From Ignavibacteriales bacterium (lineage in GTDB: Bacteria; Bacillota_I; Bacilli_A; RF39; UBA660): DNA of 64,000 bases. Position 1 is the first letter of the stretch. Each line of letters starts with the position of its first letter. Shown piece by piece: positions 40,857 through 53,790 of the stretch. Location of the stretch: assembly GCA_050259235.1 (NCBI GenBank), contig JBLNAG010000002.1:24382-88381 (forward strand), given 5' to 3'. The notes under the pieces were generated by a model. That model saw only the letters and a program-made list of their open reading frames with translations, did no database searches and was not told where the DNA came from. The translations under genes and the position numbers were made by a program.

Positions 40857-41645
40857 ATGACAACTTATACAGTTGTATCAGGTGACACAATGTGGAGAAT
40901 TGCCGTAAAGTATGGAATTGAATTAAGTGATCTAATAGCAGCAAATCCACAAATTTTAAATTCAGCTCTTATTTTACCAGGTCAAACAATTAATATTCCA
41001 AGTGCTACTAGTGTTCCAAATATTCCTAATACTAACATCTCAACTTATAAAGTTATGCCTGGAGACACCATGTGGAAAATAGCTAGAAATAATGGAATTG
41101 GTTTGAGTGATTTAATAGCAGCTAATCCACAAATTATAAATCCAACACTTATTTTACCAGGTCAAACAATTAATATTCCAAGCATTCCTAGTATTCCTGG
41201 CATGCCTAGTATTCCAAGTACTCCAACTACTCCAACTACGACAACTGCCCCTAGTGACATCAGGGCATTGGAAACTGAAGTTATTCGTCTAGTTAATGCT
41301 GAAAGAGCAAAAGCAGGTCTATCAGCACTTACTGAAAACAGCGAATTAACCCGTATTGCTAGAATTAAATCAGAAGATTTTGTAAAAAATAATTATTTTT
41401 CACATAATTCGCCTACTTATGGAACTCCATTTGAAATGCTTAGATCATTTGGTGTTAACTTTACTGCAGCTGCTGAAAATATTGCAAGTGGACAAAGGAC
41501 TGCCTCAGAAGTTATGAACAGTTGGATGAATTCCTCAGGTCATAGAGCAAACATCTTAAACTCTACATATAATCAAATTGGTGTAGGTGTTGCAAGAGAT
41601 AATGATGGTAGTTTATTTTGGACTCAATTATTCATAAGGAGTTAA
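40857..41645 (+). CDS. secreted LysM-LysM-CAP (SCP/YkwD-like) domain protein
   Basis: Two LysM repeats (YTVVSGDTMWRIAVKYG..., YKVMPGDTMWKIARNNG...), a Pro/Thr linker, then a CAP domain (FSHNSPTYGTPFEM...GHRANILNSTYNQIGVGVA). Confidence 0.8.
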   Translation: MTTYTVVSGDTMWRIAVKYGIELSDLIAANPQILNSALILPGQTINIPSATSVPNIPNTNISTYKVMPGDTMWKIARNNGIGLSDLIAANPQIINPTLILPGQTINIPSIPSIPGMPSIPSTPTTPTTTTAPSDIRALETEVIRLVNAERAKAGLSALTENSELTRIARIKSEDFVKNNYFSHNSPTYGTPFEMLRSFGVNFTAAAENIASGQRTASEVMNSWMNSSGHRANILNSTYNQIGVGVARDNDGSLFWTQLFIRS

Positions 41646-41773
41646 TACTCCTTTTTGTTTTAAATGTTTTCAAAAATTTAATTAATAAACATTTATATTA
41701 ATGTACTTTAAATATATCATTATCATATTGTTTATGATATAAAAATATATGTTATAATGTATCCATAAGGAGT

Positions 41774-42550
41774 GTGCTTATGAAAAAAGAAAGTGAAACA
41801 AAAAATAGGATATGGATTGGTATTGTTGGAGCCTTTATTGGGGCTTCTATCGCAGCAATACCGTGGATAGTAGCATATGTTTATGCTGAAATGATATTAT
41901 CTTTACTTGCAATACTAATTGCAGCTGGAGCTTTAACGGGATACAAAAAATTCAAAGGTGAAATTAACGAAAACTTGCCTATCATTATAGTTGTTATTTC
42001 TATACTGGTTGTTACAATTACTACTTTGATTGTAATACCACTTTTAATACTTGCTAAAGAAGGATATGCTATTACATTAGGTAACCTAAAAATTTTGTAT
42101 CAGTACAACGATTTTACACAAGCTATCATTAAAGATTATGTTATCTCTATTATTTTTACCTTCTTGGGGATTAGTGGTGTTGTTACTAATGTTAAAAATC
42201 AATTGAGAAATGATCCTAACGACAAGGACATAAAAGCATATGTTCCAAACCAATCAAGTTTTATAAATTATAAAATGGTAAATGAAATAAAGGAATCGTT
42301 CCTATCATTAGGAGCAATGAGTAAGGAAACTGCCTTACCTAAAAATATAATTATAGATGAACTGAAAGTTACAAATCCCAAACTAGAGTTTAATAATCTT
42401 AGAATGCAACAAATCATAAGAAGGTACAAAGGCAAATATTACTTTAGTGAACGAGCTGTTTTAAGTTTTTGGTATCGCTATTTACCACTATATCTAAAAA
42501 TCTTTTTTATAATGCTAGTACTATTTTTAATTGCTATGCTATTTTCATAA
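41774..42550 (+). CDS. hypothetical polytopic membrane protein
   Basis: 258 aa with about 5 TM helices; a terminator follows. Confidence 0.45.
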   Translation: MLMKKESETKNRIWIGIVGAFIGASIAAIPWIVAYVYAEMILSLLAILIAAGALTGYKKFKGEINENLPIIIVVISILVVTITTLIVIPLLILAKEGYAITLGNLKILYQYNDFTQAIIKDYVISIIFTFLGISGVVTNVKNQLRNDPNDKDIKAYVPNQSSFINYKMVNEIKESFLSLGAMSKETALPKNIIIDELKVTNPKLEFNNLRMQQIIRRYKGKYYFSERAVLSFWYRYLPLYLKIFFIMLVLFLIAMLFS

Positions 42551-42566
42551 AAATAACCCAAAAACA

Positions 42567-42593
42567 AAACCAACATTATTGTTGGTTTTTATT
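42567..42593. terminator. bidirectional rho-independent terminator between convergent genes
   Basis: aaaccaaca ttatt gttggtttt followed by tatttt. Confidence 0.55.
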
Positions 42594-42614
42594 TTAGTTA
42601 TTAATTACCTCTAT

Positions 42615-43907
42615 TTACTCTGTAACTTTTATACTAACAGAATCTGCTAAATAATATCTACCATCTGATTCATGACCTATTATTGATTCTTTAGCATCTA
42701 AATCATTAAAATGCCACCACTCTGATGCTAATGGTGTTAAACCAGCATTAGTACAGTAATTTTGTAATTTTATAGCATCCACAGTAATCGTAGGTGATAG
42801 TGGAGCTCCCTTCCAAGCTGTCTTTGAATCTGACATAACACCATACTTAAACACAGCTGATTTAGAAGTTAGGTCATGTATTCTAGTTGGCATAGTATAT
42901 TCTGTATAATCAACCATTTCAATATATTTATATTTTCCCATTTCCTTAATGGTATAACGATCAACCTTAACTAAACTAGTGTCCATCGCTACTCCGATTT
43001 GATGAGTTGATAATCCTCCAACAATAAACCATACTGCACCCCAACCATTTGAATTAATATCATTATAAATGTCACTATTGTTAGCTGTTAAAATACTGAA
43101 ACTATTAGCCACTTTCATTTGTACTTCATAAGGTCTAAATGTTTCATATATTTTAAGACTATCACCATTTCTTAATGCCAATTGTTGTGCTTTACTAATC
43201 TTTTTAGCCATTGCATACAATACCGGCATAGCAAATTTTTCTTTATCAAATCTTTCATTATACATTAGGACATCATATAATTTTTCGTTGGTTATACCTG
43301 ATAATTCATGTCCAGAAGATATAAATAGTGATTTATAACTATTGGTATCTTCATATACAATAGACGGGATAACATCAGGTAGATTTATCATACAATAAAT
43401 GTTATCTACCCATCCCTTACTCCCATTATAATTTATATACCACCAATTACCATCTTCTAATAATATTCTAAAGGCTTCACCTTTACCTATTATTTCAATT
43501 GTTTCTGAATCTAATGAATTACCTTTTTTCAAACTCATATCAATCGTTGCATATCCAGTAGCACCACTTATGGGTAATTCAAAACCTCTATTATTATTTA
43601 CAGGTTCTATTTGACCATTAACAGGTGTGTAATATTTAGTACCATCTGGATCATCAACTGGGGTTTCTTCATCTGGATCTTCAACTACTGGCTTTTCTGG
43701 TTCATTAGGAGTTTCTTTTTTAAAGTCACCAAATAGAAAAAAAGATGCTATACCAAAGCAAAACAATAATACTATTACTGAAATACCTATTATTAACTTT
43801 TTACGTTTACGTTCACGTTCTTTGTTACGAAAAAGTTTATGCATTATTTCTGAAATATATATTCTTAACTTTTTATGTTCTCTTCTATGAAAAAGTTTAT
43901 GCCACAT
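42615..43907 (-). CDS. membrane-anchored M15-family (VanY-like) D,D-carboxypeptidase with an SH3-like domain
   Basis: N-terminal TM helix, a Pro/Glu-rich linker, SH3-like GEAFRILLEDGNWWYINYNGSKGWV, then M15 motifs STHQIGVAMD (SxHxxGxAxD) and SEWWHF (ExxH). Confidence 0.75.
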   Translation of the reverse strand: MWHKLFHRREHKKLRIYISEIMHKLFRNKERERKRKKLIIGISVIVLLFCFGIASFFLFGDFKKETPNEPEKPVVEDPDEETPVDDPDGTKYYTPVNGQIEPVNNNRGFELPISGATGYATIDMSLKKGNSLDSETIEIIGKGEAFRILLEDGNWWYINYNGSKGWVDNIYCMINLPDVIPSIVYEDTNSYKSLFISSGHELSGITNEKLYDVLMYNERFDKEKFAMPVLYAMAKKISKAQQLALRNGDSLKIYETFRPYEVQMKVANSFSILTANNSDIYNDINSNGWGAVWFIVGGLSTHQIGVAMDTSLVKVDRYTIKEMGKYKYIEMVDYTEYTMPTRIHDLTSKSAVFKYGVMSDSKTAWKGAPLSPTITVDAIKLQNYCTNAGLTPLASEWWHFNDLDAKESIIGHESDGRYYLADSVSIKVTE

Positions 43908-43977
43908 ACTTCACATCTCCTTCTTCTTATCCCTTGATAGAAACCAATTATCCCATAAACTACTTATATTGTCAATT

Positions 43978-44463
43978 TTACTTATTATATTGATACTCAA
44001 TGCTTATAATAACATCATTTTCAACAATAAAAGATAATATAACATTTGATTTAACATATTTATATTGATTACTTATTTGCTCGTAATCTTCACCATATTT
44101 TTCAATCATTACCGATTTATCATCAGCAATCTTAACACCTTCTGGCGTTGCTACTTTATCATTTAGAAAATATACTGAATATACTGTATCTTTGCCATTC
44201 ATTTGAGAAGCAGTAATTTCAATATTTTCATAGGTATAAACTTTATCATTACCTTCAAAAGCACAGCTTGTTAATTCAATATAATTAGCTTCTTCATCAA
44301 TTGATGAACTCTTGAACTCTAAACCAGGTGTTACATCTACTCCTTTATAAGCAAATGTTAAGGTTTCTCCATCATTATTTTCCTTTTTAATATTATTATT
44401 TTTACTATTACATCCAGTAACAACAATAGTAAGTACCAAGAACAGTATAATTATTTTTTTCAT
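43978..44463 (-). CDS. hypothetical lipoprotein
   Basis: Lipobox LTIVVTGC followed by a 140-aa secreted domain. Confidence 0.55.
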   Translation of the reverse strand: MKKIIILFLVLTIVVTGCNSKNNNIKKENNDGETLTFAYKGVDVTPGLEFKSSSIDEEANYIELTSCAFEGNDKVYTYENIEITASQMNGKDTVYSVYFLNDKVATPEGVKIADDKSVMIEKYGEDYEQISNQYKYVKSNVILSFIVENDVIISIEYQYNK

Positions 44464-44483
44464 TTGTACTCTCCTTCAAAACA

Positions 44484-45485
44484 TTATTTTATTTTTTCTT
44501 TATATATTTTTAATTTTGCATTATATAAAGGATCACCTTTATAATTAGTTAAGTCATAACGTGAAGATAACACTCTAGCAAAGAATTCGGATAACTTAGT
44601 TGCTCCTGTTAAATTTAAGTGAAGACCTCCATCGTATGTATCTTTTGAATAATCAATTCCAATAATATTGGCATAATCTTTTAAATTATAATAGTCAATA
44701 TCATTTTCTTTAGCAAAGTCTTTTATTTGTTTATCGTATTCTTCATACCAATATGGATAAAGACTTGGAGCTTTTACTAGTACTAATTCAATATTATTTT
44801 CTTCACATAGTTTTAATATCAATTCTAAATAATGATAAGACTCTTCACTGAAATCATAGCTAGCTAGTTTCTTTTCAGTTGGAAGATTAGTTACACCTTT
44901 TATATTTTTATTCATTAAGAATCCATTATAGGTATTATCTTTTCTCTTAAATAGATATTCAAAGTCTTCATTTGTTAATTGATTATATCGTGAATGATAT
45001 CTCAATATTGGAAAGACATAAGACATAAAACCTTCATCTTCTGTCATTGATTCCTTTATTATTTCAATCTTTTCCTTTGACCATTTCATCTTATCAATAG
45101 TTAAACGATTATAAGCTTCGCTTACTTTTTCGCTTTCTTTATCATATCTAATTGAATTGACATTAAAGACAACTACTTTGGGAATTTCATATTTTAACGT
45201 CTCTTTTAAAATAATGTATGACTGCCAGATCATCTGTTGGGATGAACCCCTTATATATGCCTTTATTCCACTTGTTTCATACATTACCATTGGTGAAAAA
45301 TTGGCATATACTTCACAGTCACCAATGAATATTACTTCATGATCTTTAACTTCATTATAATACTGTGATATCATACTTCCTTCAACTAGATTGGTTGCAT
45401 ACTTAGGTTGAAATAACATATTTAATATCACAAATACTACTATAAAAAATATTAGCATAATTCCAATTCTTATTATTTTCTTCAT
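44484..45485 (-). CDS. DltD/SGNH-like acyl-transfer partner of the adjacent MBOAT gene (extracytoplasmic, N-terminally anchored)
   Basis: N-terminal TM anchor and an IFIGDCEVY block in place of the GDS(L) motif. It sits directly downstream of the MBOAT gene (10-nt gap), as in AlgI/AlgJ, DltB/DltD and PatA/PatB pairs. Confidence 0.5.
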   Translation of the reverse strand: MKKIIRIGIMLIFFIVVFVILNMLFQPKYATNLVEGSMISQYYNEVKDHEVIFIGDCEVYANFSPMVMYETSGIKAYIRGSSQQMIWQSYIILKETLKYEIPKVVVFNVNSIRYDKESEKVSEAYNRLTIDKMKWSKEKIEIIKESMTEDEGFMSYVFPILRYHSRYNQLTNEDFEYLFKRKDNTYNGFLMNKNIKGVTNLPTEKKLASYDFSEESYHYLELILKLCEENNIELVLVKAPSLYPYWYEEYDKQIKDFAKENDIDYYNLKDYANIIGIDYSKDTYDGGLHLNLTGATKLSEFFARVLSSRYDLTNYKGDPLYNAKLKIYKEKIK

Positions 45486-45495
45486 TTGTTACCCC

Positions 45496-46788
45496 TTAAA
45501 ATTTACTATAAATAAATTCATTGACATTAAAACCAATTCCATATATACCAAGCACTAGTATTAGTAATATTGTTATACATAAGAATGCTATTTTTAATTC
45601 AACGGATACATTTTTTAATTTTGATTTAATTTTGGCTTTATTTCCATCATATACAAAGACAATTGTAGTAAATATAAATAATATAATCCAATCATTTAAA
45701 CTTAATCCTAAATTAGGAATATTTGCAATAACATCCATTGGATTAAAAGTGGTGAATATTGATGCAGCCATCTTTAATGCTACAAAACTGTTACCCCAGA
45801 TAAAGAAAACCCATAAGATAGAAACTAATGCAAATGTTCCTAAACGATTAATCCATTTAAATGGAGTTCTACAACTATCACCAAACATAACAAATATACC
45901 ATGAATAATACCCCACAAGACATAATTTATACCGTGCCAGATACCTGAAATAAAGAATGTTATTAAAAGATTAATATTTCTTCTTATTATCCCTTTTCTA
46001 TTACCACCTAATGGTATATAGATATATTCTTTTAACCATGCACCCAATGATATATGCCATCTTTTCCAAAATTCTTTAATACTTTGTGAATAAAAAGGTG
46101 AATCAAAGTTCTCTTGAATCTTTATTCCTAGGATTCTAGATACCCCTATTACAATATCAATTCCCCCACTAAAATCACTATATAGTTGAATTGAATACAT
46201 AAATACAGCTAATAACACATACCATCCTACATATAGGTCTGTATTACTGGCAATAATAGCAATTAATATACCGATTCTTCCAGCAATAATAAGCTTTTTT
46301 AATAATCCCCAAACTATTCTCGCTGAACCATAATATAAGTTATCCCACGTAAACTTTCTTCTAGCAAATAAAGATCTTTTAATCTCATCATATCTTGATA
46401 TTGGTCCTATAAATAAATGAGGTATGTATGTAATATATAATATATATTTAAAGATATTTTTCTCAGCATTATATTTTCCTTTATACACATCAACTAAATA
46501 AGAAATTACTTGTAAAGTATAATAGGAAACTCCAAGTGGTACCATCACATTAAAGTTTAATAGTTGACTAAACATTCCATTTTGAAAGGTAATAAATTTT
46601 ATAACCAATAAAATAGAAGCATTAGCAACAATCGTTAATATTAATATAGTTTTCTTATATTTAGATTTAAAGCATCTTGTTGCTATATAGCTAGTAAAGA
46701 TACTAAACATAATAAAAATAAGATTTGTTATACCGAAACTTGCATAAATTACAATACTTAGTATTAATAGCATCATATTCACTAGCAT
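45496..46788 (-). CDS. MBOAT-family membrane O-acyltransferase (AlgI/DltB/PatA-like)
   Basis: Polytopic, with the MBOAT signature WKRWHISLGAWLKEYIYIPLGG and a conserved His. Confidence 0.85.
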   Translation of the reverse strand: MLVNMMLLILSIVIYASFGITNLIFIMFSIFTSYIATRCFKSKYKKTILILTIVANASILLVIKFITFQNGMFSQLLNFNVMVPLGVSYYTLQVISYLVDVYKGKYNAEKNIFKYILYITYIPHLFIGPISRYDEIKRSLFARRKFTWDNLYYGSARIVWGLLKKLIIAGRIGILIAIIASNTDLYVGWYVLLAVFMYSIQLYSDFSGGIDIVIGVSRILGIKIQENFDSPFYSQSIKEFWKRWHISLGAWLKEYIYIPLGGNRKGIIRRNINLLITFFISGIWHGINYVLWGIIHGIFVMFGDSCRTPFKWINRLGTFALVSILWVFFIWGNSFVALKMAASIFTTFNPMDVIANIPNLGLSLNDWIILFIFTTIVFVYDGNKAKIKSKLKNVSVELKIAFLCITILLILVLGIYGIGFNVNEFIYSKF

Positions 46789-46810
46789 ATTTTACATCTC
46801 CTTATTAAAA

Positions 46811-48391
46811 CTAATTAGCTACTGGATATGCAGCTCTATTCCAATTTCTGCCTGCCATACCAGAACTAGCATATTTTTGATCATCAGTAGCTGGACCTAG
46901 TAATTGTGTCGTTGGAGTTGTATCATAATGCCTCCACACACCACCAATATATACTAAATTCCAATAATGGGTATAATCAGTAACGCTGATTAGACGATTT
47001 GTTATTCCAGCTTTAGTTAAAGCTTTTTGGAATATTAAAGCACGCACATAACAATTACCAGCATTATTTGTTAATCCATACCAAACAGGGTCGTCCCCTC
47101 CCCAACTATAGTTATACTTGATATTATCTCTAATAAAGACAGCCATACCTAAAACATCTTTTCCAGCTAAGTATGTATTATAAAACACATTAAATTTATA
47201 ATCAGTATCAGCTTGATCATGATTAACAACAACTTTTCGTTTAGCTGTACTTATATTTCCTTTGCTATCTTGAGTTGTATAAGTTGCATAATAAGTTCCT
47301 GCAGCTGAAGTATTAACTTTACTAGCATCAACTGCAAAGGTACAACTACCATCATTATCATCAACAGCCGTTACACCATAGTTATAATTGATAGTAGCAT
47401 ATTTAGCTACATATAAGTCACTAAGACCTGATAATATTGGTCCTGTTGTATCACTAATAATAGTTAAAGTTGCTGTTTTTTCTATTTTGTTTCCATTTTT
47501 ATCTACAGCTTCAATCTTAACTTCTTGATCACCAATTTTAGCATAGTCAATGGTTTGTTTCATAGTCGTAATTACCTCTCCTGAGGCATCACCAACATAT
47601 TTTATAAAGTTATCTTTTGTTAATTCATTATCAGGATATGATTTTAGATTTTGAAGTTCAAGTTGTGGAGGTGTCGTATCTTGCACAACCACTTTTGATT
47701 TATATTTCTTATTATCATAGGTTGCATTAATGATATATTCACCCATGATCATCGTATTTACCTTTTCAATTTCAGCTTGTGAAACCTTATCAGCATCTTT
47801 TTCCATATTTTCAATAATCATTTCTTTAGAAAACTTGCTTCCTAGTTCTACATAAACTATTGGTTTTAACCATGTTATAGTTAATGTACATTTTTTAGTT
47901 GTCTTATTTCCATATTTGTCTTTTACTGTTACTTCAACTACATAATCTTTATATTCCGTAGTATCTTTAATTTGGGTAGCAGTTATATTCATTTCTGAAG
48001 AATCTTTTTTATCTACAATAAAATCATCTGCATTAACTTTGTATCCACTATATCTTGATATATTTTGAAATTCTACTACTGGTGCTTTAGTATCTACTAT
48101 TTTTAATTTTACTGTTTCTACTTTTCCTTTATGTGACAACTTAATATTAGTTTCCGAAACCTTAGAAAAATCTACTTTAGTTAAATCTGTTATTACTTTG
48201 GCATGGTCTTTGCAAGCATCACTTGTTAAAAAATTACTTAATGACACTTTATCAGTACCTAATTCAATTGTTAGATCCTTAAATTTAGGTCTCATTGCAA
48301 TATAAAAAAAATATCCAACTACCACTATTGAAGAGATAGTCATAACAATAAGAATATTTCTTGTTAGTTTTTTTATTTTAACATTATCCAT
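46811..48391 (-). CDS. membrane-anchored protein with Ig-like (DUF5011-type) domains and a C-terminal transglutaminase-like Cys-His-Asp domain
   Basis: N-terminal TM segment; GNCYVRALIFQ...HYWNLVYIGGVWRHYDTTP matches the transglutaminase-core C/H/D spacing; the upstream GPILSGLSDLYVA...TYYATYTTQDSKGN segment is DUF5011-like. Confidence 0.65.
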   Translation of the reverse strand: MDNVKIKKLTRNILIVMTISSIVVVGYFFYIAMRPKFKDLTIELGTDKVSLSNFLTSDACKDHAKVITDLTKVDFSKVSETNIKLSHKGKVETVKLKIVDTKAPVVEFQNISRYSGYKVNADDFIVDKKDSSEMNITATQIKDTTEYKDYVVEVTVKDKYGNKTTKKCTLTITWLKPIVYVELGSKFSKEMIIENMEKDADKVSQAEIEKVNTMIMGEYIINATYDNKKYKSKVVVQDTTPPQLELQNLKSYPDNELTKDNFIKYVGDASGEVITTMKQTIDYAKIGDQEVKIEAVDKNGNKIEKTATLTIISDTTGPILSGLSDLYVAKYATINYNYGVTAVDDNDGSCTFAVDASKVNTSAAGTYYATYTTQDSKGNISTAKRKVVVNHDQADTDYKFNVFYNTYLAGKDVLGMAVFIRDNIKYNYSWGGDDPVWYGLTNNAGNCYVRALIFQKALTKAGITNRLISVTDYTHYWNLVYIGGVWRHYDTTPTTQLLGPATDDQKYASSGMAGRNWNRAAYPVAN

Positions 48392-48635
48392 TTTAATACA
48401 CCTACTAATTCTTATATTATTTTTATAAGCCTATATTATAATGTTATATTCTATTTAATTATACAACACGGTATAAATAACAGTCAAATATATCTCCTGT
48501 TGGTATGACAAGAAATGTAAATAAAAAAAGAATGAATAATCATTCTTTAATAATTCATAATTGTTGGAGCAGATTGACCCATAAATGAACTAAAAAGTTC
48601 TTTTGCATTAGATGTATCTTTAGATGATTTAACTC

Positions 48636-48663
48636 AAAAAGAAAGCAATGATTAAATCCATTG
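48636..48663 (-). terminator. terminator downstream of the 946-aa gene
   Basis: gaaagcaatg attaaatc cattgctttt followed by a U-run on the minus strand. Confidence 0.5.
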
Positions 48664-48724
48664 CTTTTTAATTATAAAATATACTGTCGAATTAAATAAA
48701 ATTTCACTCCCCCAACATTAACAA

Positions 48725-51556
48725 TTATTCTATTGGGTACCTATATATAGGATATTTTTGAGAAATTTCTATATTAACACTTTCAAATATTTTAATAATC
48801 AAGTGTTCCTTTAGGTATTCATCAATATCGATGTTATCTTTTAACAAAAATTGAGGAGGATTATCTTTTAATTCTTTAACCATCTTTGTATTATTTGAAA
48901 CATCAATTAAAGAAATTTGGCGTGTTCCTTCAGAATTTAAATCGTCATATAAATCTTCTTGAAGTCTATTTTTATAGATTCCCTCAATAGATTTTTTACT
49001 TAGAATAATCGCACAATTATCTTCGAAATAAAAGCCTTCTATAACAGGAATTTTGACTTTATCTTTTTTATAATAATAAACATATCTTTCTTCCTTATCA
49101 TAATATTTTATTTTATTCGAAATATAATAATAAGGAACCAATATAACGATGTCAGATTTGTCTGGAAATGTTTTAATTATTTCATCAAGGGAATCCTCTG
49201 TTATTTCTATACTTTTTTTGTACAATTCAGTTAAGAAAAATTCATTTTCTGCTTCAATTATAGCATTAGCATATTCTTTACCAATAAATTTCACAGAATT
49301 ACCTGGCTCTTCAATAAAATAATCTTTATTTATGAATTGATTAAATCCTTTTGATTCTTTTATGCTGTTTTCGTTAATTATCCATTTCTTTCCATCAAAA
49401 AGAAAATTTGAAATTTTATCATTTCTGTTATCTAATAAATAGTTAATTTCTTCCCTAAATTTATCAATGACATCATTCGAAAGAGATGTATTTAAAATTT
49501 CATTTTTCTTTTCTTCAATGCATTTCTCCAATTTCAAATTTAAGTAATTGATTAAATCATTTTTATATGTGTCTTTTTTATCTGGTGGATATTTTAAAAT
49601 AGATTCTGCAAAATAATCATATTTCTTCAACTTATCAATGAAATTCTTAAATAAATATTCATTTTTTTTATTTACTATATTTAATAACTCTAATTTATTT
49701 TGCTCTATTCTAATACCATTATAATACGCAATTAAAGTTAAGGAACTTATTTCATCAAACTGTATTGTAATTAGGCCTTGATGCTTATTTTCAGGTTCAT
49801 TGAATTCCAAAAAGTGCCACGAAGATATAAGTTCATTATATTTTCCCTCTTTATTTAACTCCAAATTCAATTCTAATATGTCAGCCACATTATACCCTAA
49901 AAACCAATTATGAATCGTTTTTACTATAACTTTTCTGATGTTTTCTGCATTTTCTGATTTTGCTTTATTAAACTTATATATCAGCCAAGAAATAGCCCCG
50001 ATTTTAACTATATTTTCCGGAATAAGATATTCCATCGATTTTATATAAGCTTTCTTATTATTTAATATGAATGATTCTTTATAATCCTCATCCCCATCAT
50101 ACAATTCAGAATCTTTGATTCTATTAGTCGCAAAAAGACTTCCATTCACAGAATATATTCTACTTGAGTTTTGAGGGAATACACTCGTTATAACAGAATA
50201 TTTTTCCTTTCCAATTGCATCAAATATAATTTGCTGTTTTAAATTTAAGAAGTAATATGAAACATTTATTTCATCAAATTTTCCTGCTGTTATTTTTTCA
50301 TAGAAAGACAAATCATTACTAAGTTTTTCGAACTCTAAATCTGTTTTTAAATCACTAAGTCGCAAATAGAAATACATACTATAGTATTTTTTAAATTCAT
50401 TAAAATTATTTTTATTTTTGGCTTCTGATGATAATAACAACGAAAACTCTATTATTTGTTTTTCAAATTTCTTGTAATTAAACCTAATATTCCTCATTTG
50501 ACGGAAAATTTTATCTAAAAAATCATTATCATTTGTTTCAATAAAAGCTTTAAAGAACTGAATTATTTCCTTTTGATATTTATCTGCATCAAATGTATTA
50601 TTTTCTTTATAAGAATTTAATAGATCAGAAAAAATATTATTTATATCTCCTTCCACCATATTTCTATCATCAACGTTAACCGCTTTTATTCTTATTGAGT
50701 TTAAAATTTTATTTTCTTCAATTTTCAATTCTTTTTTAACTCTTAAAATAGATTCACCTTCTTTAATATAAGAACCTACAACTTTCTTTAATATAAATAA
50801 TTCTTTATTATTTTTTTGTTCTTTATTGGAAGCATCATTTATTTGAGAACTATTGGTGTCATATTCATTATTTTTATTTTTTTTAACTAATTTACCTAAA
50901 TATTTAAAATCGATATTATCAATATAACCAGTTTCTTTGCTGTATATATCCGTGTACTCGTCTTTATCTCCAAAAAAACCGTGCATTTCATCATAACTTA
51001 TAAAATCGTATTTTGCTAATTCTTTTTCAAAATTTGGATACTTACTTTTTATATCATTTATGTTTTTTTCAAAATTATCTTTTCGCTTTTCCAAAAATTT
51101 TTTGAATTTCCTATTACTTTTATCTTCAGATAAGAATATATTAATGAAATTTTTGAAATAACATAATAACATAATATTTATTGTTACTACAAGTGCTGTT
51201 ATTACATATTTTATTACTATGAAATCACAATAAAGGGAAACTATCATCAATAAAAATGTAATTAAAGAATACTTAATAAGTTTAACTATACCTGATTGTT
51301 CTACTAAGAATGGTAAATGCGTTTCTCTCTTTTTATTTTTATTTTCAAATATAAATATTGATAGTGATATTAAATATGCTGAGAATCCAACAAACACTGC
51401 TAATAGGTAACCATCATAACCATCACTCAAAATAGTTTTATCTATAAAATCTTTAAATGTATTTAATGCTTTCCATATATATGTAATTAAGCTTTGGATT
51501 GTTATCAGCAAAAAGTAAATAAAATCTTTTATAATTTCTAATTTTTCAAATTTCAT
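48725..51556 (-). CDS. large orphan membrane protein (4 N-terminal TM helices plus an ~800-aa cytoplasmic Lys/Asn/Glu-rich domain)
   Basis: 946-aa ORF. The likely start is the ATG at 51556, with the RBS ggggtgg 8 nt upstream. No recognisable catalytic motif and no P-loop. Confidence 0.55.
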   Translation of the reverse strand: MKFEKLEIIKDFIYFLLITIQSLITYIWKALNTFKDFIDKTILSDGYDGYLLAVFVGFSAYLISLSIFIFENKNKKRETHLPFLVEQSGIVKLIKYSLITFLLMIVSLYCDFIVIKYVITALVVTINIMLLCYFKNFINIFLSEDKSNRKFKKFLEKRKDNFEKNINDIKSKYPNFEKELAKYDFISYDEMHGFFGDKDEYTDIYSKETGYIDNIDFKYLGKLVKKNKNNEYDTNSSQINDASNKEQKNNKELFILKKVVGSYIKEGESILRVKKELKIEENKILNSIRIKAVNVDDRNMVEGDINNIFSDLLNSYKENNTFDADKYQKEIIQFFKAFIETNDNDFLDKIFRQMRNIRFNYKKFEKQIIEFSLLLSSEAKNKNNFNEFKKYYSMYFYLRLSDLKTDLEFEKLSNDLSFYEKITAGKFDEINVSYYFLNLKQQIIFDAIGKEKYSVITSVFPQNSSRIYSVNGSLFATNRIKDSELYDGDEDYKESFILNNKKAYIKSMEYLIPENIVKIGAISWLIYKFNKAKSENAENIRKVIVKTIHNWFLGYNVADILELNLELNKEGKYNELISSWHFLEFNEPENKHQGLITIQFDEISSLTLIAYYNGIRIEQNKLELLNIVNKKNEYLFKNFIDKLKKYDYFAESILKYPPDKKDTYKNDLINYLNLKLEKCIEEKKNEILNTSLSNDVIDKFREEINYLLDNRNDKISNFLFDGKKWIINENSIKESKGFNQFINKDYFIEEPGNSVKFIGKEYANAIIEAENEFFLTELYKKSIEITEDSLDEIIKTFPDKSDIVILVPYYYISNKIKYYDKEERYVYYYKKDKVKIPVIEGFYFEDNCAIILSKKSIEGIYKNRLQEDLYDDLNSEGTRQISLIDVSNNTKMVKELKDNPPQFLLKDNIDIDEYLKEHLIIKIFESVNIEISQKYPIYRYPIE

Positions 51557-51711
51557 ATTAACCACCCCAATAAAATAATAGTTACTAAATAAATTATATC
51601 ACAATTGTATAGTAAAAAGTAAAAAGAGACTAATTAAAGTCCCTTTTCAAATGTATTAAGATTGCAAAACCTCCTGTAAAATAAACAAAAAAATTCACAT
51701 AATTTTCATAA

Positions 51712-51730
51712 TTGGTGCAGCTGAGGAGAA
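51712..51730. repeat. 19-bp direct repeat of the tmRNA 3' end (attR-like): ttggtgCagctgaggagaa
   Basis: 18 of 19 bases match 53448-53466 (ttggtgGagctgaggagaa), which is the acceptor/T-arm end of ssrA, in the same orientation. Confidence 0.55.
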
Positions 51731-51855
51731 ATTAATTATACTGTATTTTATTGTATACAACATTTAAAAGCCTTTATATTTCAATGATTAATGTATTATA
51801 TTGTATTTATTAATTTATTTTTTTTGTACCTGATTTGTACCTAAAAAAGATGGCA

Positions 51856-53286
51856 TTACTTACATATACTTATTGTCCCGTTCAAGATATTAGGGTTATA
51901 TTTTGTATTTATAGAATATTCTATTTTATCAATGTCTTCATTCAAGAAAATACGACAAGGAAAAGATATGATTTCATTAGGTTTTATGTCTTTCTGAATA
52001 TAACTAATGGTAACGTAATCGTCGTTATAAATTATTTCATAACCTGACTTATATTCAATCAAGTCATAATAGTAATCTTTCATACTTTTATAACTTGGAG
52101 AAGAAGTTCGCCCTGTTGGCAAAGAAATAGAAGTGGGTTGGGTCGGAATACTTCGTCTCTCTAATTCTCTATAAGAACTAATTCCCTTCCGTTTCTTTAT
52201 ATCAAATATTGAATCAACTATATGTACTTTTAAGAAATCCTCAATTGTGTTTTCATAAGGGACTGGAAAATTTTTATAATCAAAGAAACCTTTTTTGGGT
52301 ATGGTTATACTAACTTTAATATCAGAATCAAAGACTTTACCTATATTTTGTATAGCAAGTTCTACAAAATGCATTTTATCAAGTTCCGTTCGTAGTTTTT
52401 CTACCTCATGTTTACGATGAATATTATCAAATATTTTATGAATTAAGCCAATCTTCTTTTTTGCTTCTTCTCCTCCAATATAATGATAACCCCCTAACGG
52501 ATAGGGAGTTTCACTTAAGTTACCCAACTCAAAAAAATTGGGGTTTAGGTGAACGTTATTATAATTTGCATACTCTCTTATTATTTTTGCTTCTTCATCA
52601 CTTATTTTTATCCTACTGCCAAAGACCACACGAGAACTAGGTTCGTCTATTATAATTTTATTAACCTCACTAATATCTTCAGTTATTTTTTCTACTAATT
52701 TACTAACGCTGAACTCATAGTTATACATATTTATAGCAAATCCTTCTATTATTCCATTATCAATTAAACCTACTACTTTTAAATCACTGATACTATTTGC
52801 CATCTTTTCTTTATAAAAAAGGTCATAATCTCTTCGGGTAACTTCGGCATTTTGCTCGCCTTTTCTAATTCTAATAAAACCTTTTGGTAATTTACCATAT
52901 TGTTTACTTAAGCAGTATGGTCTATCTCTATTAGTTTTTGATATTCTAAAAACACCAAACTGTGTGCTGCTATAATCAATTAGCTCGAAATCAACAATAA
53001 TAGTTGGTTCAATATTATTAGTAATCAATGATTGATAATTTGCCCCGTCTTGAACTTTAGACAAGTCAATATTTTTAAACTTCTTATGACCATCTTTACA
53101 TACCCCAACACCTATTATTATATATTTATCATCTAAACAATGTGAATTAGCGAAAGAAAGAACGTCAACAATGAAATCTTCTTTTGAAGTTTGGGAACTA
53201 AAATCATATATATCAATTTTAAAATCTAAATAATCACATTCTCTGCCACTATCAATATGATTTTCTACTATATCTTTATCAATCAT
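51856..53286 (-). CDS. AlbA_2 (Schlafen-like, formerly 'divergent AAA') domain protein with an unknown ~330-aa C-terminal region
   Basis: N-terminal ECDYLDFKIDIYDF...VLSFANSH...YIIIGV matches the AlbA_2 core (ExxEFK...AFANxxGGxxxIGV). The ORF track starts at 53364, but the likely start is the internal Met at 53286, with the RBS gaaggga 9 nt upstream. Confidence 0.65.
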   Translation of the reverse strand: MIDKDIVENHIDSGRECDYLDFKIDIYDFSSQTSKEDFIVDVLSFANSHCLDDKYIIIGVGVCKDGHKKFKNIDLSKVQDGANYQSLITNNIEPTIIVDFELIDYSSTQFGVFRISKTNRDRPYCLSKQYGKLPKGFIRIRKGEQNAEVTRRDYDLFYKEKMANSISDLKVVGLIDNGIIEGFAINMYNYEFSVSKLVEKITEDISEVNKIIIDEPSSRVVFGSRIKISDEEAKIIREYANYNNVHLNPNFFELGNLSETPYPLGGYHYIGGEEAKKKIGLIHKIFDNIHRKHEVEKLRTELDKMHFVELAIQNIGKVFDSDIKVSITIPKKGFFDYKNFPVPYENTIEDFLKVHIVDSIFDIKKRKGISSYRELERRSIPTQPTSISLPTGRTSSPSYKSMKDYYYDLIEYKSGYEIIYNDDYVTISYIQKDIKPNEIISFPCRIFLNEDIDKIEYSINTKYNPNILNGTISICK

Positions 53287-53416
53287 AACAACAATCCCTT
53301 CATAGAAATATATACCTATATTATAAGATAAAATCGAAGAAATGTATATATGATTATATTTCATATTTTTTAGGCACTAAAAAAGTACCTAAAATGTACT
53401 TAAAAAAAACAAAAAA

Positions 53417-53437
53417 AACCCTTATAAAATAAGGGTT
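53417..53437 (-). terminator. tmRNA terminator
   Basis: aaccctta ttt tataagggtt immediately 3' of the tmRNA CCA end, followed by a long U-run. Confidence 0.55.
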
Positions 53438-53448
53438 AACTATCACTT

Positions 53449-53790
53449 TGGTGGAGCTGAGGAGAATCGAACTCCTGTCCGAAAATATCTCATTATAAGC
53501 TTCTACAAGTTTAGTCAGTTAATTAAATTCCTAGAAAAAGTTGATAACTAACAATCCCTTCCCTAGTAAGCTTATTATTTTCATTATTACTATAAGCATC
53601 ATAATAATATATCCTATATAATCGAGCCTCTTAAATCCCCTATAGGAGAAAGAATAGAAGAAGCAGCTATGCTATTTTATTAAGCGAAAGCTAATTGATT
53701 TCTGTTTCCAGTTATTTTTGTTTGTACTTAACGCGTACCTTCGACTTGCCACCGATAACCCAACATTCCCGTCGAAACCTGAGCAGCCCC
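53449..53790 (-). ncRNA. ssrA: transfer-messenger RNA (tmRNA, SsrA)
   Basis: The minus strand begins GGGGCUGCUCAGGUUUCGACGGGAAUG, a tRNA-like 5' end. The tag reading frame ends ...AAUCAAUUAGCUUUCGCUUAAUAA, giving ...NQLAFA followed by tandem stops. The 3' end is GGAGUUCGAUUCUCCUCAGCUCCACCA. Confidence 0.9.

Follow-up and report, generated by a model that had tools for sequence, protein, structure and literature searches.

The window analysed here is a 64-kb stretch of contig JBLNAG010000002.1, and all coordinates given below are positions in this window. Directly 3' of ssrA, the gene of the transfer-messenger RNA (tmRNA), it carries an islet of 1.7 kb, which is bracketed by two copies of the ssrA 3' end and codes for a prokaryotic Schlafen (pSlfn) protein. 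All together, the data make it probable that this islet is the remnant of a tyrosine-integrase element located at ssrA and carrying a single-chain pSlfn anti-phage protein. The islet is real but largely expected, and both of its components are of known kinds.

The ssrA repeat pair and the islet between the cores

The ssrA gene (53449..53790, minus strand; tag peptide GNRNQLAFA) was recognised as complete by ARAGORN, and the match to the Rfam model RF00023 (176 bits, full length) spans model positions 1-374 of 374, so that the gene is intact. On the tmRNA strand its 3' end reads ...GGACAGGAGTTCGATTCTCCTCAGCTCCACCA. The proximal copy of the repeat, TTGGTGGAGCTGAGGAGAA at 53448-53466, is the reverse complement of the final 18 nt of ssrA with one extra base, extending from the T-loop to one nucleotide beyond CCA. 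Its 18 nt comprise the last two T-loop bases, the 3' T-stem, the 3' acceptor strand and ACCA, and they are the same as an 18-nt core found on viral contigs; we regard this copy as the putative attL core.

The distal 19-bp copy, the putative attR core (51712..51730), lies 1.7 kb downstream of ssrA in direct orientation and is 18/19 identical to the proximal one, in agreement with the original prediction, which had reported the recurrence with a single mismatch. This mismatch, G to C on the plus strand, would break the acceptor pair G2-C, and the distal copy would therefore be a non-functional fragment; neither ARAGORN nor Rfam detected a tRNA-like body ahead of it. The bracketing of the islet by the ssrA 3' end, as first proposed, stands, while its placement needs a correction: the tmRNA is encoded on the minus strand, so that its 3' side, where the islet is, has the lower coordinates. 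When both strands of the window were searched with up to three mismatches, the 19-mer gave these two matches only, with 0 expected (100 shuffles), and the concern that it might be common elsewhere found no further copy to feed on in the 64 kb. Within 41-54 kb it is the top direct-repeat family. A third 'copy' at 41461, 14/19 identical and located inside a conserved LysM/CAP gene, was rejected and taken as a chance match.

To relate the core to mobile DNA, IMG/VR was scanned for the 18-mer. Viral contigs were found which carry the 18-nt core without the tmRNA body, and on these the identity begins at the same base, TTCTCC, as in the distal copy of the islet. On the contigs L210 and L212 a convergent tyrosine-integrase gene (Phage_integrase and Arm-DNA-bind_4) lies about 90 nt past the core, together with a cI-like helix-turn-helix (HTH) gene. 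On L214 and L216-218 a GH25 endolysin is located about 310 nt upstream of the core, which is an attR-like arrangement, and the genes after the core on L214, L217 and L218 are not of phage type, as expected for attR. In metagenome loci with an identical 26-nt tmRNA/tRNA-Ala 3' end and at least 1.5 kb of downstream sequence, a recombinase was present within 4 kb in 7 of 59 cases, and two further, truncated metagenome loci show a convergent tyrosine-integrase fragment just past the core, giving at least 9 loci in total. The presence of recombinases downstream of the 26-mer at several loci therefore identifies this site as a recurrent integration target.

The same 3' end as the ssrA core is found in tRNA-Ala(cgc) genes. 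Two loci carry two copies of the tRNA-Ala/tmRNA 3' end, 240-290 nt apart: L107 (1042 and 1335) has two tRNA-Ala genes, and in L118 (2061-2086 and 2300-2325), where a single tRNA was called, they may delimit another very short att-flanked segment.

A relative with the appearance of an empty site was also identified. The closest tmRNA relative found, at locus L142, is 96% identical over the 3' 197 nt; its ssrA is followed by a terminator and, about 80 nt later, by a promoter, a ribosome-binding site (RBS) and a start codon, and the locus has neither a second core nor a Schlafen gene. The stretch that follows ssrA in L142 aligns with window positions 51518-51610, just past the distal repeat, where the promoter, the RBS and the first codons of a gene of 946 amino acids (aa) are located (minus strand; chromosomal flank B'). 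This flank match comes from a tiled Smith-Waterman scan, in which the L142 segment was compared with 1274 window tiles on both strands: the best score, 56, fell at 51518-51610, the next was 41 and the 99th percentile 37, while blastn reported no such match. Synteny between L142 and the window picks up further on, with LysM/CAP, a 203-aa gene and M23 at 67-73% amino-acid identity. With L142 as the comparator, a different species with differing downstream genes, the site is thus found empty. Accordingly, the attL/attR interpretation put forward originally is borne out both by the identical core on integrase-bearing viral contigs and by this empty-site-like relative.

Between the two cores there is one real gene. 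Its longest open reading frame (ORF) runs from 51856 to 53364 (502 aa), and the most likely start codon is M27 at 53286, giving a pSlfn gene at 51856..53286 (minus strand; 476 aa and stop). We favour this start because it is the NCBI call, because all 27 aligned homologues begin there, and because a promoter-like site (TATACA-17-TATAAT, 53320..53348, minus strand; consensus match only), upstream of M27, falls inside the longer ORF. Directly after ssrA there is an intrinsic-terminator-like hairpin followed by a T-run (53409..53437, minus strand; stem 53437-53417, T-run next), and another terminator-like hairpin after the distal repeat (51620..51649, minus strand) may be the one that originally served ssrA. 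Just past the stop codon there are two AGGTAC motifs, 11 nt apart (51826-51831 and 51837-51842, together 51826..51842, minus strand) and a third lies upstream of the Schlafen gene (53385-53390, minus strand). These are 3 of the window's 14 copies, counted on both strands, within about 330 nt of non-coding islet DNA, and each of them comes after a T-run; they could be arm-type recombinase sites, operators or hairpin parts.

Four tyrosine and two large serine recombinases, used as tblastn queries against the 64-kb window, gave nothing significant (best E = 0.11), and no recombinase Pfam domain was present in the 10 neighbouring ORFs scanned. The ORF scan, tblastn and Pfam thus agree with the earlier description of a single-gene interval devoid of an integrase. 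Keeping both att sites without recombination or transfer genes, the islet has the composition of a cis-mobilizable element (CIME).

The Schlafen protein, its C-terminal module and related systems

The nuclease domain of the protein occupies aa 18-148 of the 476-aa form (52843..53235, minus strand). Pfam SLFN_AlbA_2 (PF04326) matches aa 44-174 of the 502-aa ORF with 33.6 bits, against a cutoff of 25.3, and the predicted fold, that of the Slfn nuclease lobe, agrees with the assignment by hidden Markov model (HMM); the AlbA_2 domain first proposed is therefore upheld by two approaches. The domain contains an Ex4DxK motif, E16-CDYL-D21-F-K23, encoded at 53218-53241, of which E16, D21, F22 and K23 are invariant in an alignment of 28 sequences (the window protein and 27 homologues). 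The Ex4(E/D)xK signature is the catalytic motif of Schlafen RNases (PMC13056530). Among 5.8 billion proteins there were 32 homologues, and most of them are 472-496 aa long and 34-53% identical over the full length. The PADLOC model PDC-S50, a 387-position AlbA_2 candidate model for which we found no paper mentioning it, matches the N-terminal 150 aa only (profile positions 6-150), and we therefore place the protein in the pSlfn class with a distinct C-terminal module.

The genomic contexts of the homologues were then inspected, and 5 of the 7 examined are beside recombinases or in a restriction-modification (R-M)/NERD island. At L004-6 the homologue lies between chromosomal genes and the convergent tyrosine integrase of a prophage, and the L004 integrase is 38-40% identical to those of L210 and L212, the two viral contigs mentioned above. 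At L007 (8581-12638) it is found between a tyrosine integrase and a 384-aa Ser/Thr kinase matching PADLOC PD-T4-6 (E = 8e-36). At L220 it sits between KilA-N and a large serine recombinase, at L001 such a recombinase is 2.4 kb away, and at L222 it is part of a NERD/Mrr/DpnII R-M island; two other contexts were uninformative. These integrase-proximal sites and the R-M island answer the earlier question of whether homologues occupy defence islands, and they make the Schlafen gene a typical integrase-proximal cargo, fitting the leftover of a lost element. Prophages and satellites carry accessory 'moron' defence genes between att and int; the L004-6 and L007 homologues are placed in this way, whereas the window has kept nothing else of the element. 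No convincing att repeats were found around the homologues in L004, L007 and L220. As a separate observation, the homologue and the kinase of L007 make up a two-gene defence cluster at the integrase end of the element.

The remainder of the protein, aa 163-476 (51859..52800, minus strand), is a module of about 310 aa which models confidently (pLDDT 87) as a beta-hairpin and helices followed by an immunoglobulin-like (Ig-like) beta-sandwich, for which the best Foldseek matches are integrin ectodomains. A conserved loop motif of the module, NxGxx[FY]DEDIE, has the form NIGKVFDSDIK in the window protein. When residues 163-476 were used as a profile, 740 representatives of clusters at 50% identity were retrieved, 213 with E <= 1e-30, and module-bearing proteins (among them P0033-P0180 and the product of viral contig L227) differ in their N-terminal heads. 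In a sample of 96 module proteins, the window protein included, there were 79 PDC-S60 DUF4062 heads, 6 Slfn, 2 of the LmuA type and 1 TIR/ThsB-like head; on L227 (5239-6897) the module (hhalign probability 99.2) is preceded by a CBASS-type 'Effector, Endonuclease' head. In IMG/VR the module occurs on two contigs only. Pfam and PADLOC matches of the module-bearing proteins all fall in the N-terminal heads and none in the module, and no PDB sequence relatives were detected with the full-length profile, the C-terminal profile or a DUF4062 relative as queries. The statement that the C-terminal part has no recognisable domain thus holds as far as Pfam and PADLOC matches are concerned, and it does not hold for the structure, in view of a confident fold, an Ig-like sandwich and a widespread module.

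Because one and the same module pairs with interchangeable toxic heads, it bears the signature of a sensor or activation domain, and we infer that it would respond to infection. A broader reading, which we put forward tentatively and with somewhat less than even confidence, is that the module defines a large uncatalogued single-chain immune family (at least 740 clusters), in which one sensing/activation module is combined with interchangeable N-terminal effectors. On this reading the effectors may be DUF4062 NADases in most members, and Schlafen RNases, TIR domains and LmuA-type or CBASS-type nucleases in others. If so, the window protein would be a natural effector swap, offering a handle on the ligand of the module and on how one sensor drives chemically unrelated effectors. 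Should the module be a phage sensor, a comparison of Slfn-, DUF4062- and TIR-headed proteins could show how it is coupled to different killing chemistries.

Proteins of the pSlfn class are anti-phage tRNases activated by phages, and their sensor domains are interchangeable (Perez Taboada et al., Nat Microbiol 2026, PMC13056530). The window protein resembles pSlfn5/RorSlfn5 in being a single chain with an N-terminal PF04326 domain (E16/D21 corresponding to E15/D20 in RorSlfn5), in having a C-terminal non-catalytic Ig-like sandwich whose best Foldseek matches are integrin ectodomains in both cases, and in having homologues associated with defence genes and mobile elements. It differs in being about 100 aa longer (476 aa versus 43.1 kDa), in its host, an uncultured low-GC lineage of gut Bacilli, and in its module, whose homologues are the C-termini of proteins with DUF4062, TIR and nuclease heads. 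In this comparison RorSlfn5 was considered by description, and PDC-S50, a possible equivalent of pSlfn5, matches only the N-terminal 150 aa.

A second related group is formed by the Swarozyc and NIR proteins. DUF4062 is a TIR-like NADase immune effector activated via a C-terminal auxiliary domain (Swarozyc, bioRxiv 10.64898/2026.05.01.722283; NIR, 10.64898/2026.09.04.749371). The general layout is the common point: the effector is N-terminal, a linker comes next, and an auxiliary domain at the C-terminus senses a phage protein. Most module proteins carry DUF4062 as their effector. The window protein, in contrast, carries Slfn and has no DUF4062 match, and it is therefore not a Swarozyc protein. 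The auxiliary domain of KpSwz is described as an HTH/winged fold.

As for the islet itself, ssrA islands with repeats of about 20 bp, some of them without integration genes, are known in Dehalococcoides (ssrA-GIs; PMC3146451). Both have ssrA and a direct repeat of about 20 bp starting in the T-loop as their bounds, both leave the tmRNA intact, and the lack of integration genes is shared with some of those islands. The window islet is distinguished by its tiny size (1.7 kb, one gene), by the lack of an integrase and by no tandem array being visible. Furthermore, the Dehalococcoides islands use a serine recombinase, while the cognate integrases deduced here from the viral contigs are tyrosine recombinases.

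These precedents change the weight of the original prediction. Its islet and its domain were right, and its novelty was overstated: integrase-less ssrA islets are known (PMC3146451), and the 'undescribed single-protein defence' has counterparts in the prokaryotic Schlafen anti-phage tRNases published in 2025-26 (PMC13056530) and in the PADLOC entry PDC-S50. What the window adds is a Schlafen-type immune protein from an uncultured, small-genome lineage of gut Bacilli, and, if the carrier was lost as we propose, such a gene kept alone at an ssrA hotspot would be a clear example of a host-retained defence gene. Current understanding is not overturned; what is still of interest is the uncatalogued C-terminal module, along with the T-run and AGGTAC motifs. 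The module, present in hundreds of proteins with different effector heads, is the more useful by-product of this analysis.

Origin of the islet and competing explanations

Islands of the CP4-57/P4 type sit at ssrA. In the history that we favour for the islet, a tyrosine-integrase element, either a prophage or a small integrative island, would have inserted into the core of ssrA that goes from the T-loop to the 3' end. This insertion would have restored a full tmRNA 3' end at attL, the displaced copy ending up at attR. Between the cores there would have been left a terminator for ssrA, a promoter and one accessory gene, in the order attL-terminator-promoter-pSlfn-attR. The integrase and all other genes of the element would have been lost, leaving either a decayed remnant or a cis-mobilizable element in need of an integrase in trans; alternatively, the insertion may have been a minimal cis-mobilizable unit from the start. 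In the protein, the N-terminal Slfn/AlbA_2 domain with its Ex4DxK motif would be an RNase, and the C-terminal module would detect infection or regulate activation. As with RorSlfn5, tRNA cleavage would set in once a phage protein is recognised, and translation and phage production would stop. We infer this integration-and-decay history from the arrangement of the locus; the nuclease activity, the tRNA target, the sensor role and the defence phenotype of the window protein are likewise predicted, and a phage-triggered cleavage of tRNA is expected from the parallel with RorSlfn5.

Several results weigh against this picture. The islet arms do not significantly resemble the arms found at viral att sites. 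L142 belongs to a different species, fairly distant in view of the 67-73% amino-acid identity in the flanking genes, and its conserved promoter is followed by a gene of 431 aa that is unrelated to the 946-aa gene of the window. The exact locus was found in only one genome, with no islet-free strain of the same species in the collections. No homologue occurs in 50,697 GenBank phage records. Within the otherwise conserved DEDIE motif, which reads DSDIK in the window protein, the substitutions D321S and E324K are present. Finally, a likeness between the terminator after ssrA and that of L142 would, if it reflected real homology, oppose a crossover inside the core. This likeness had been noted by eye, and it was set aside as not significant alone (z = 0.3).

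Other routes to an islet-free locus were followed. An exact look-up of the smpB sequence for further strains returned the same contig only. The comparison suggested originally, of whether smpB/pyrG/ssrA is followed directly by other genes in related genomes, could not serve its purpose: 80 related pyrG loci were fetched and 41 scanned for a tmRNA, and ssrA was within 10 kb in 0 of the 41. The pyrG-ssrA adjacency is therefore lineage-specific and useless as an empty-site test. It was also observed that, although the metagenome-assembled genome (MAG) is labelled Ignavibacteriales, the closest pyrG loci (74-85% identity; L009-L088) come from uncultured gut Bacilli, Mollicutes-like and 'Candidatus Coprovivens/Coprosoma' MAGs; some of these pyrG-bearing MAGs are labelled Muribaculaceae, and the taxonomic labels look unreliable.

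Two alternatives accept the integration and differ in what the islet is today. It might be a functional cis-mobilizable or satellite-like element, moved by an integrase supplied in trans by a phage that targets ssrA or tRNA-Ala, and spreading its defence gene. Both cores are kept with one mismatch. The T-run and AGGTAC motifs, possible arm-type binding sites, are strongly over-represented in the two non-coding arms, similar AT-rich gut samples contain phages that have the identical core together with a cognate integrase, and cis-mobilizable elements at ssrA have already been proposed (PMC3146451). However, no second copy or variant was present in about 120 ssrA/tRNA-Ala loci or in the viral contigs, the islet arms bear no relation to the viral att arms, and the mismatch falls inside the core; we consider such mobility unlikely. 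It is not likely either that the AlbA_2 islet is the first module of a larger variable island (about 41.7-53.4 kb), built by successive insertions with eroded boundaries. The distance from ssrA to LysM/CAP, 11.8 kb in the window versus 1.5 kb in L142, does imply that more than the islet varies here; in addition, the 946-aa gene has a GC content of 21-25% and no recognisable domain, and tandem ssrA islands are known (PMC3146451). This has to be set against the lack of any further core copy (the match at 41461 being 14/19 and inside a conserved gene), the lack of a recombinase relic in the window, and the alignment of the promoter and the 5' end of the 946-aa gene with L142, by which they look chromosomal.

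The remaining alternatives concern the nature of the gene and of the repeat. In the source annotations the protein is 'RNA-binding' or a 'putative DNA binding domain-containing protein', SAMD9 has an AlbA_2 domain whose crystal structure (7ksp) is that of a DNA-binding domain, and many AlbA_2 proteins are fused to HTH domains (PMC13056530), all of which would suit a nucleic-acid-binding regulator, acting for a mobile element or for the host, rather than an immune nuclease. The catalytic Ex4DxK is, however, invariant across the family, the window protein has no HTH domain, the module is elsewhere joined to NADase, TIR and nuclease effectors and not to regulators, and the homologues occupy defence and integrase-proximal cargo positions, so that a regulatory role appears highly improbable. 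Least of all do we believe in a chance match or a relic of a tRNA fragment next to an ordinary lineage-specific gene. This explanation could point to the one mismatched copy, the missing integrase and the lack of a same-species comparison, yet it is disfavoured by the zero matches expected by chance, by the direct orientation of a pair that brackets exactly one gene, found elsewhere as mobile-element cargo, by the left identity boundary coinciding with that of real phage att cores, and by the match of the flank beyond the distal repeat to the post-ssrA region of L142.

Genes surrounding the islet

The local gene order, with all genes on the minus strand, is smpB, a 915-aa gene, a hexapeptide acetyltransferase, pyrG, ssrA, the islet, the 946-aa gene, an Ig-like/transglutaminase protein and MBOAT. 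In the segment 53867-59645, smpB is set apart from ssrA by the 915-aa ORF, which has no recognisable domain and a GC content of about 22-24%, by the hexapeptide acetyltransferase and by pyrG. On the other side of ssrA, no domain was found in the 946-aa protein (GC 21-25%).

The block 41700-51700, which contains the genes for the 946-aa protein, the Ig-like/transglutaminase protein, MBOAT and a DltD/GDSL-like protein, and others, is missing from the syntenic region of L142; therefore the whole stretch downstream of ssrA is variable and not just the islet. Beyond window coordinate 64000, on the same contig (L089, 1-4604), a VirD4/TraG-type coupling protein and an M23 peptidase are encoded upstream of rnr-smpB, which suggests a conjugative-element remnant just outside the window.

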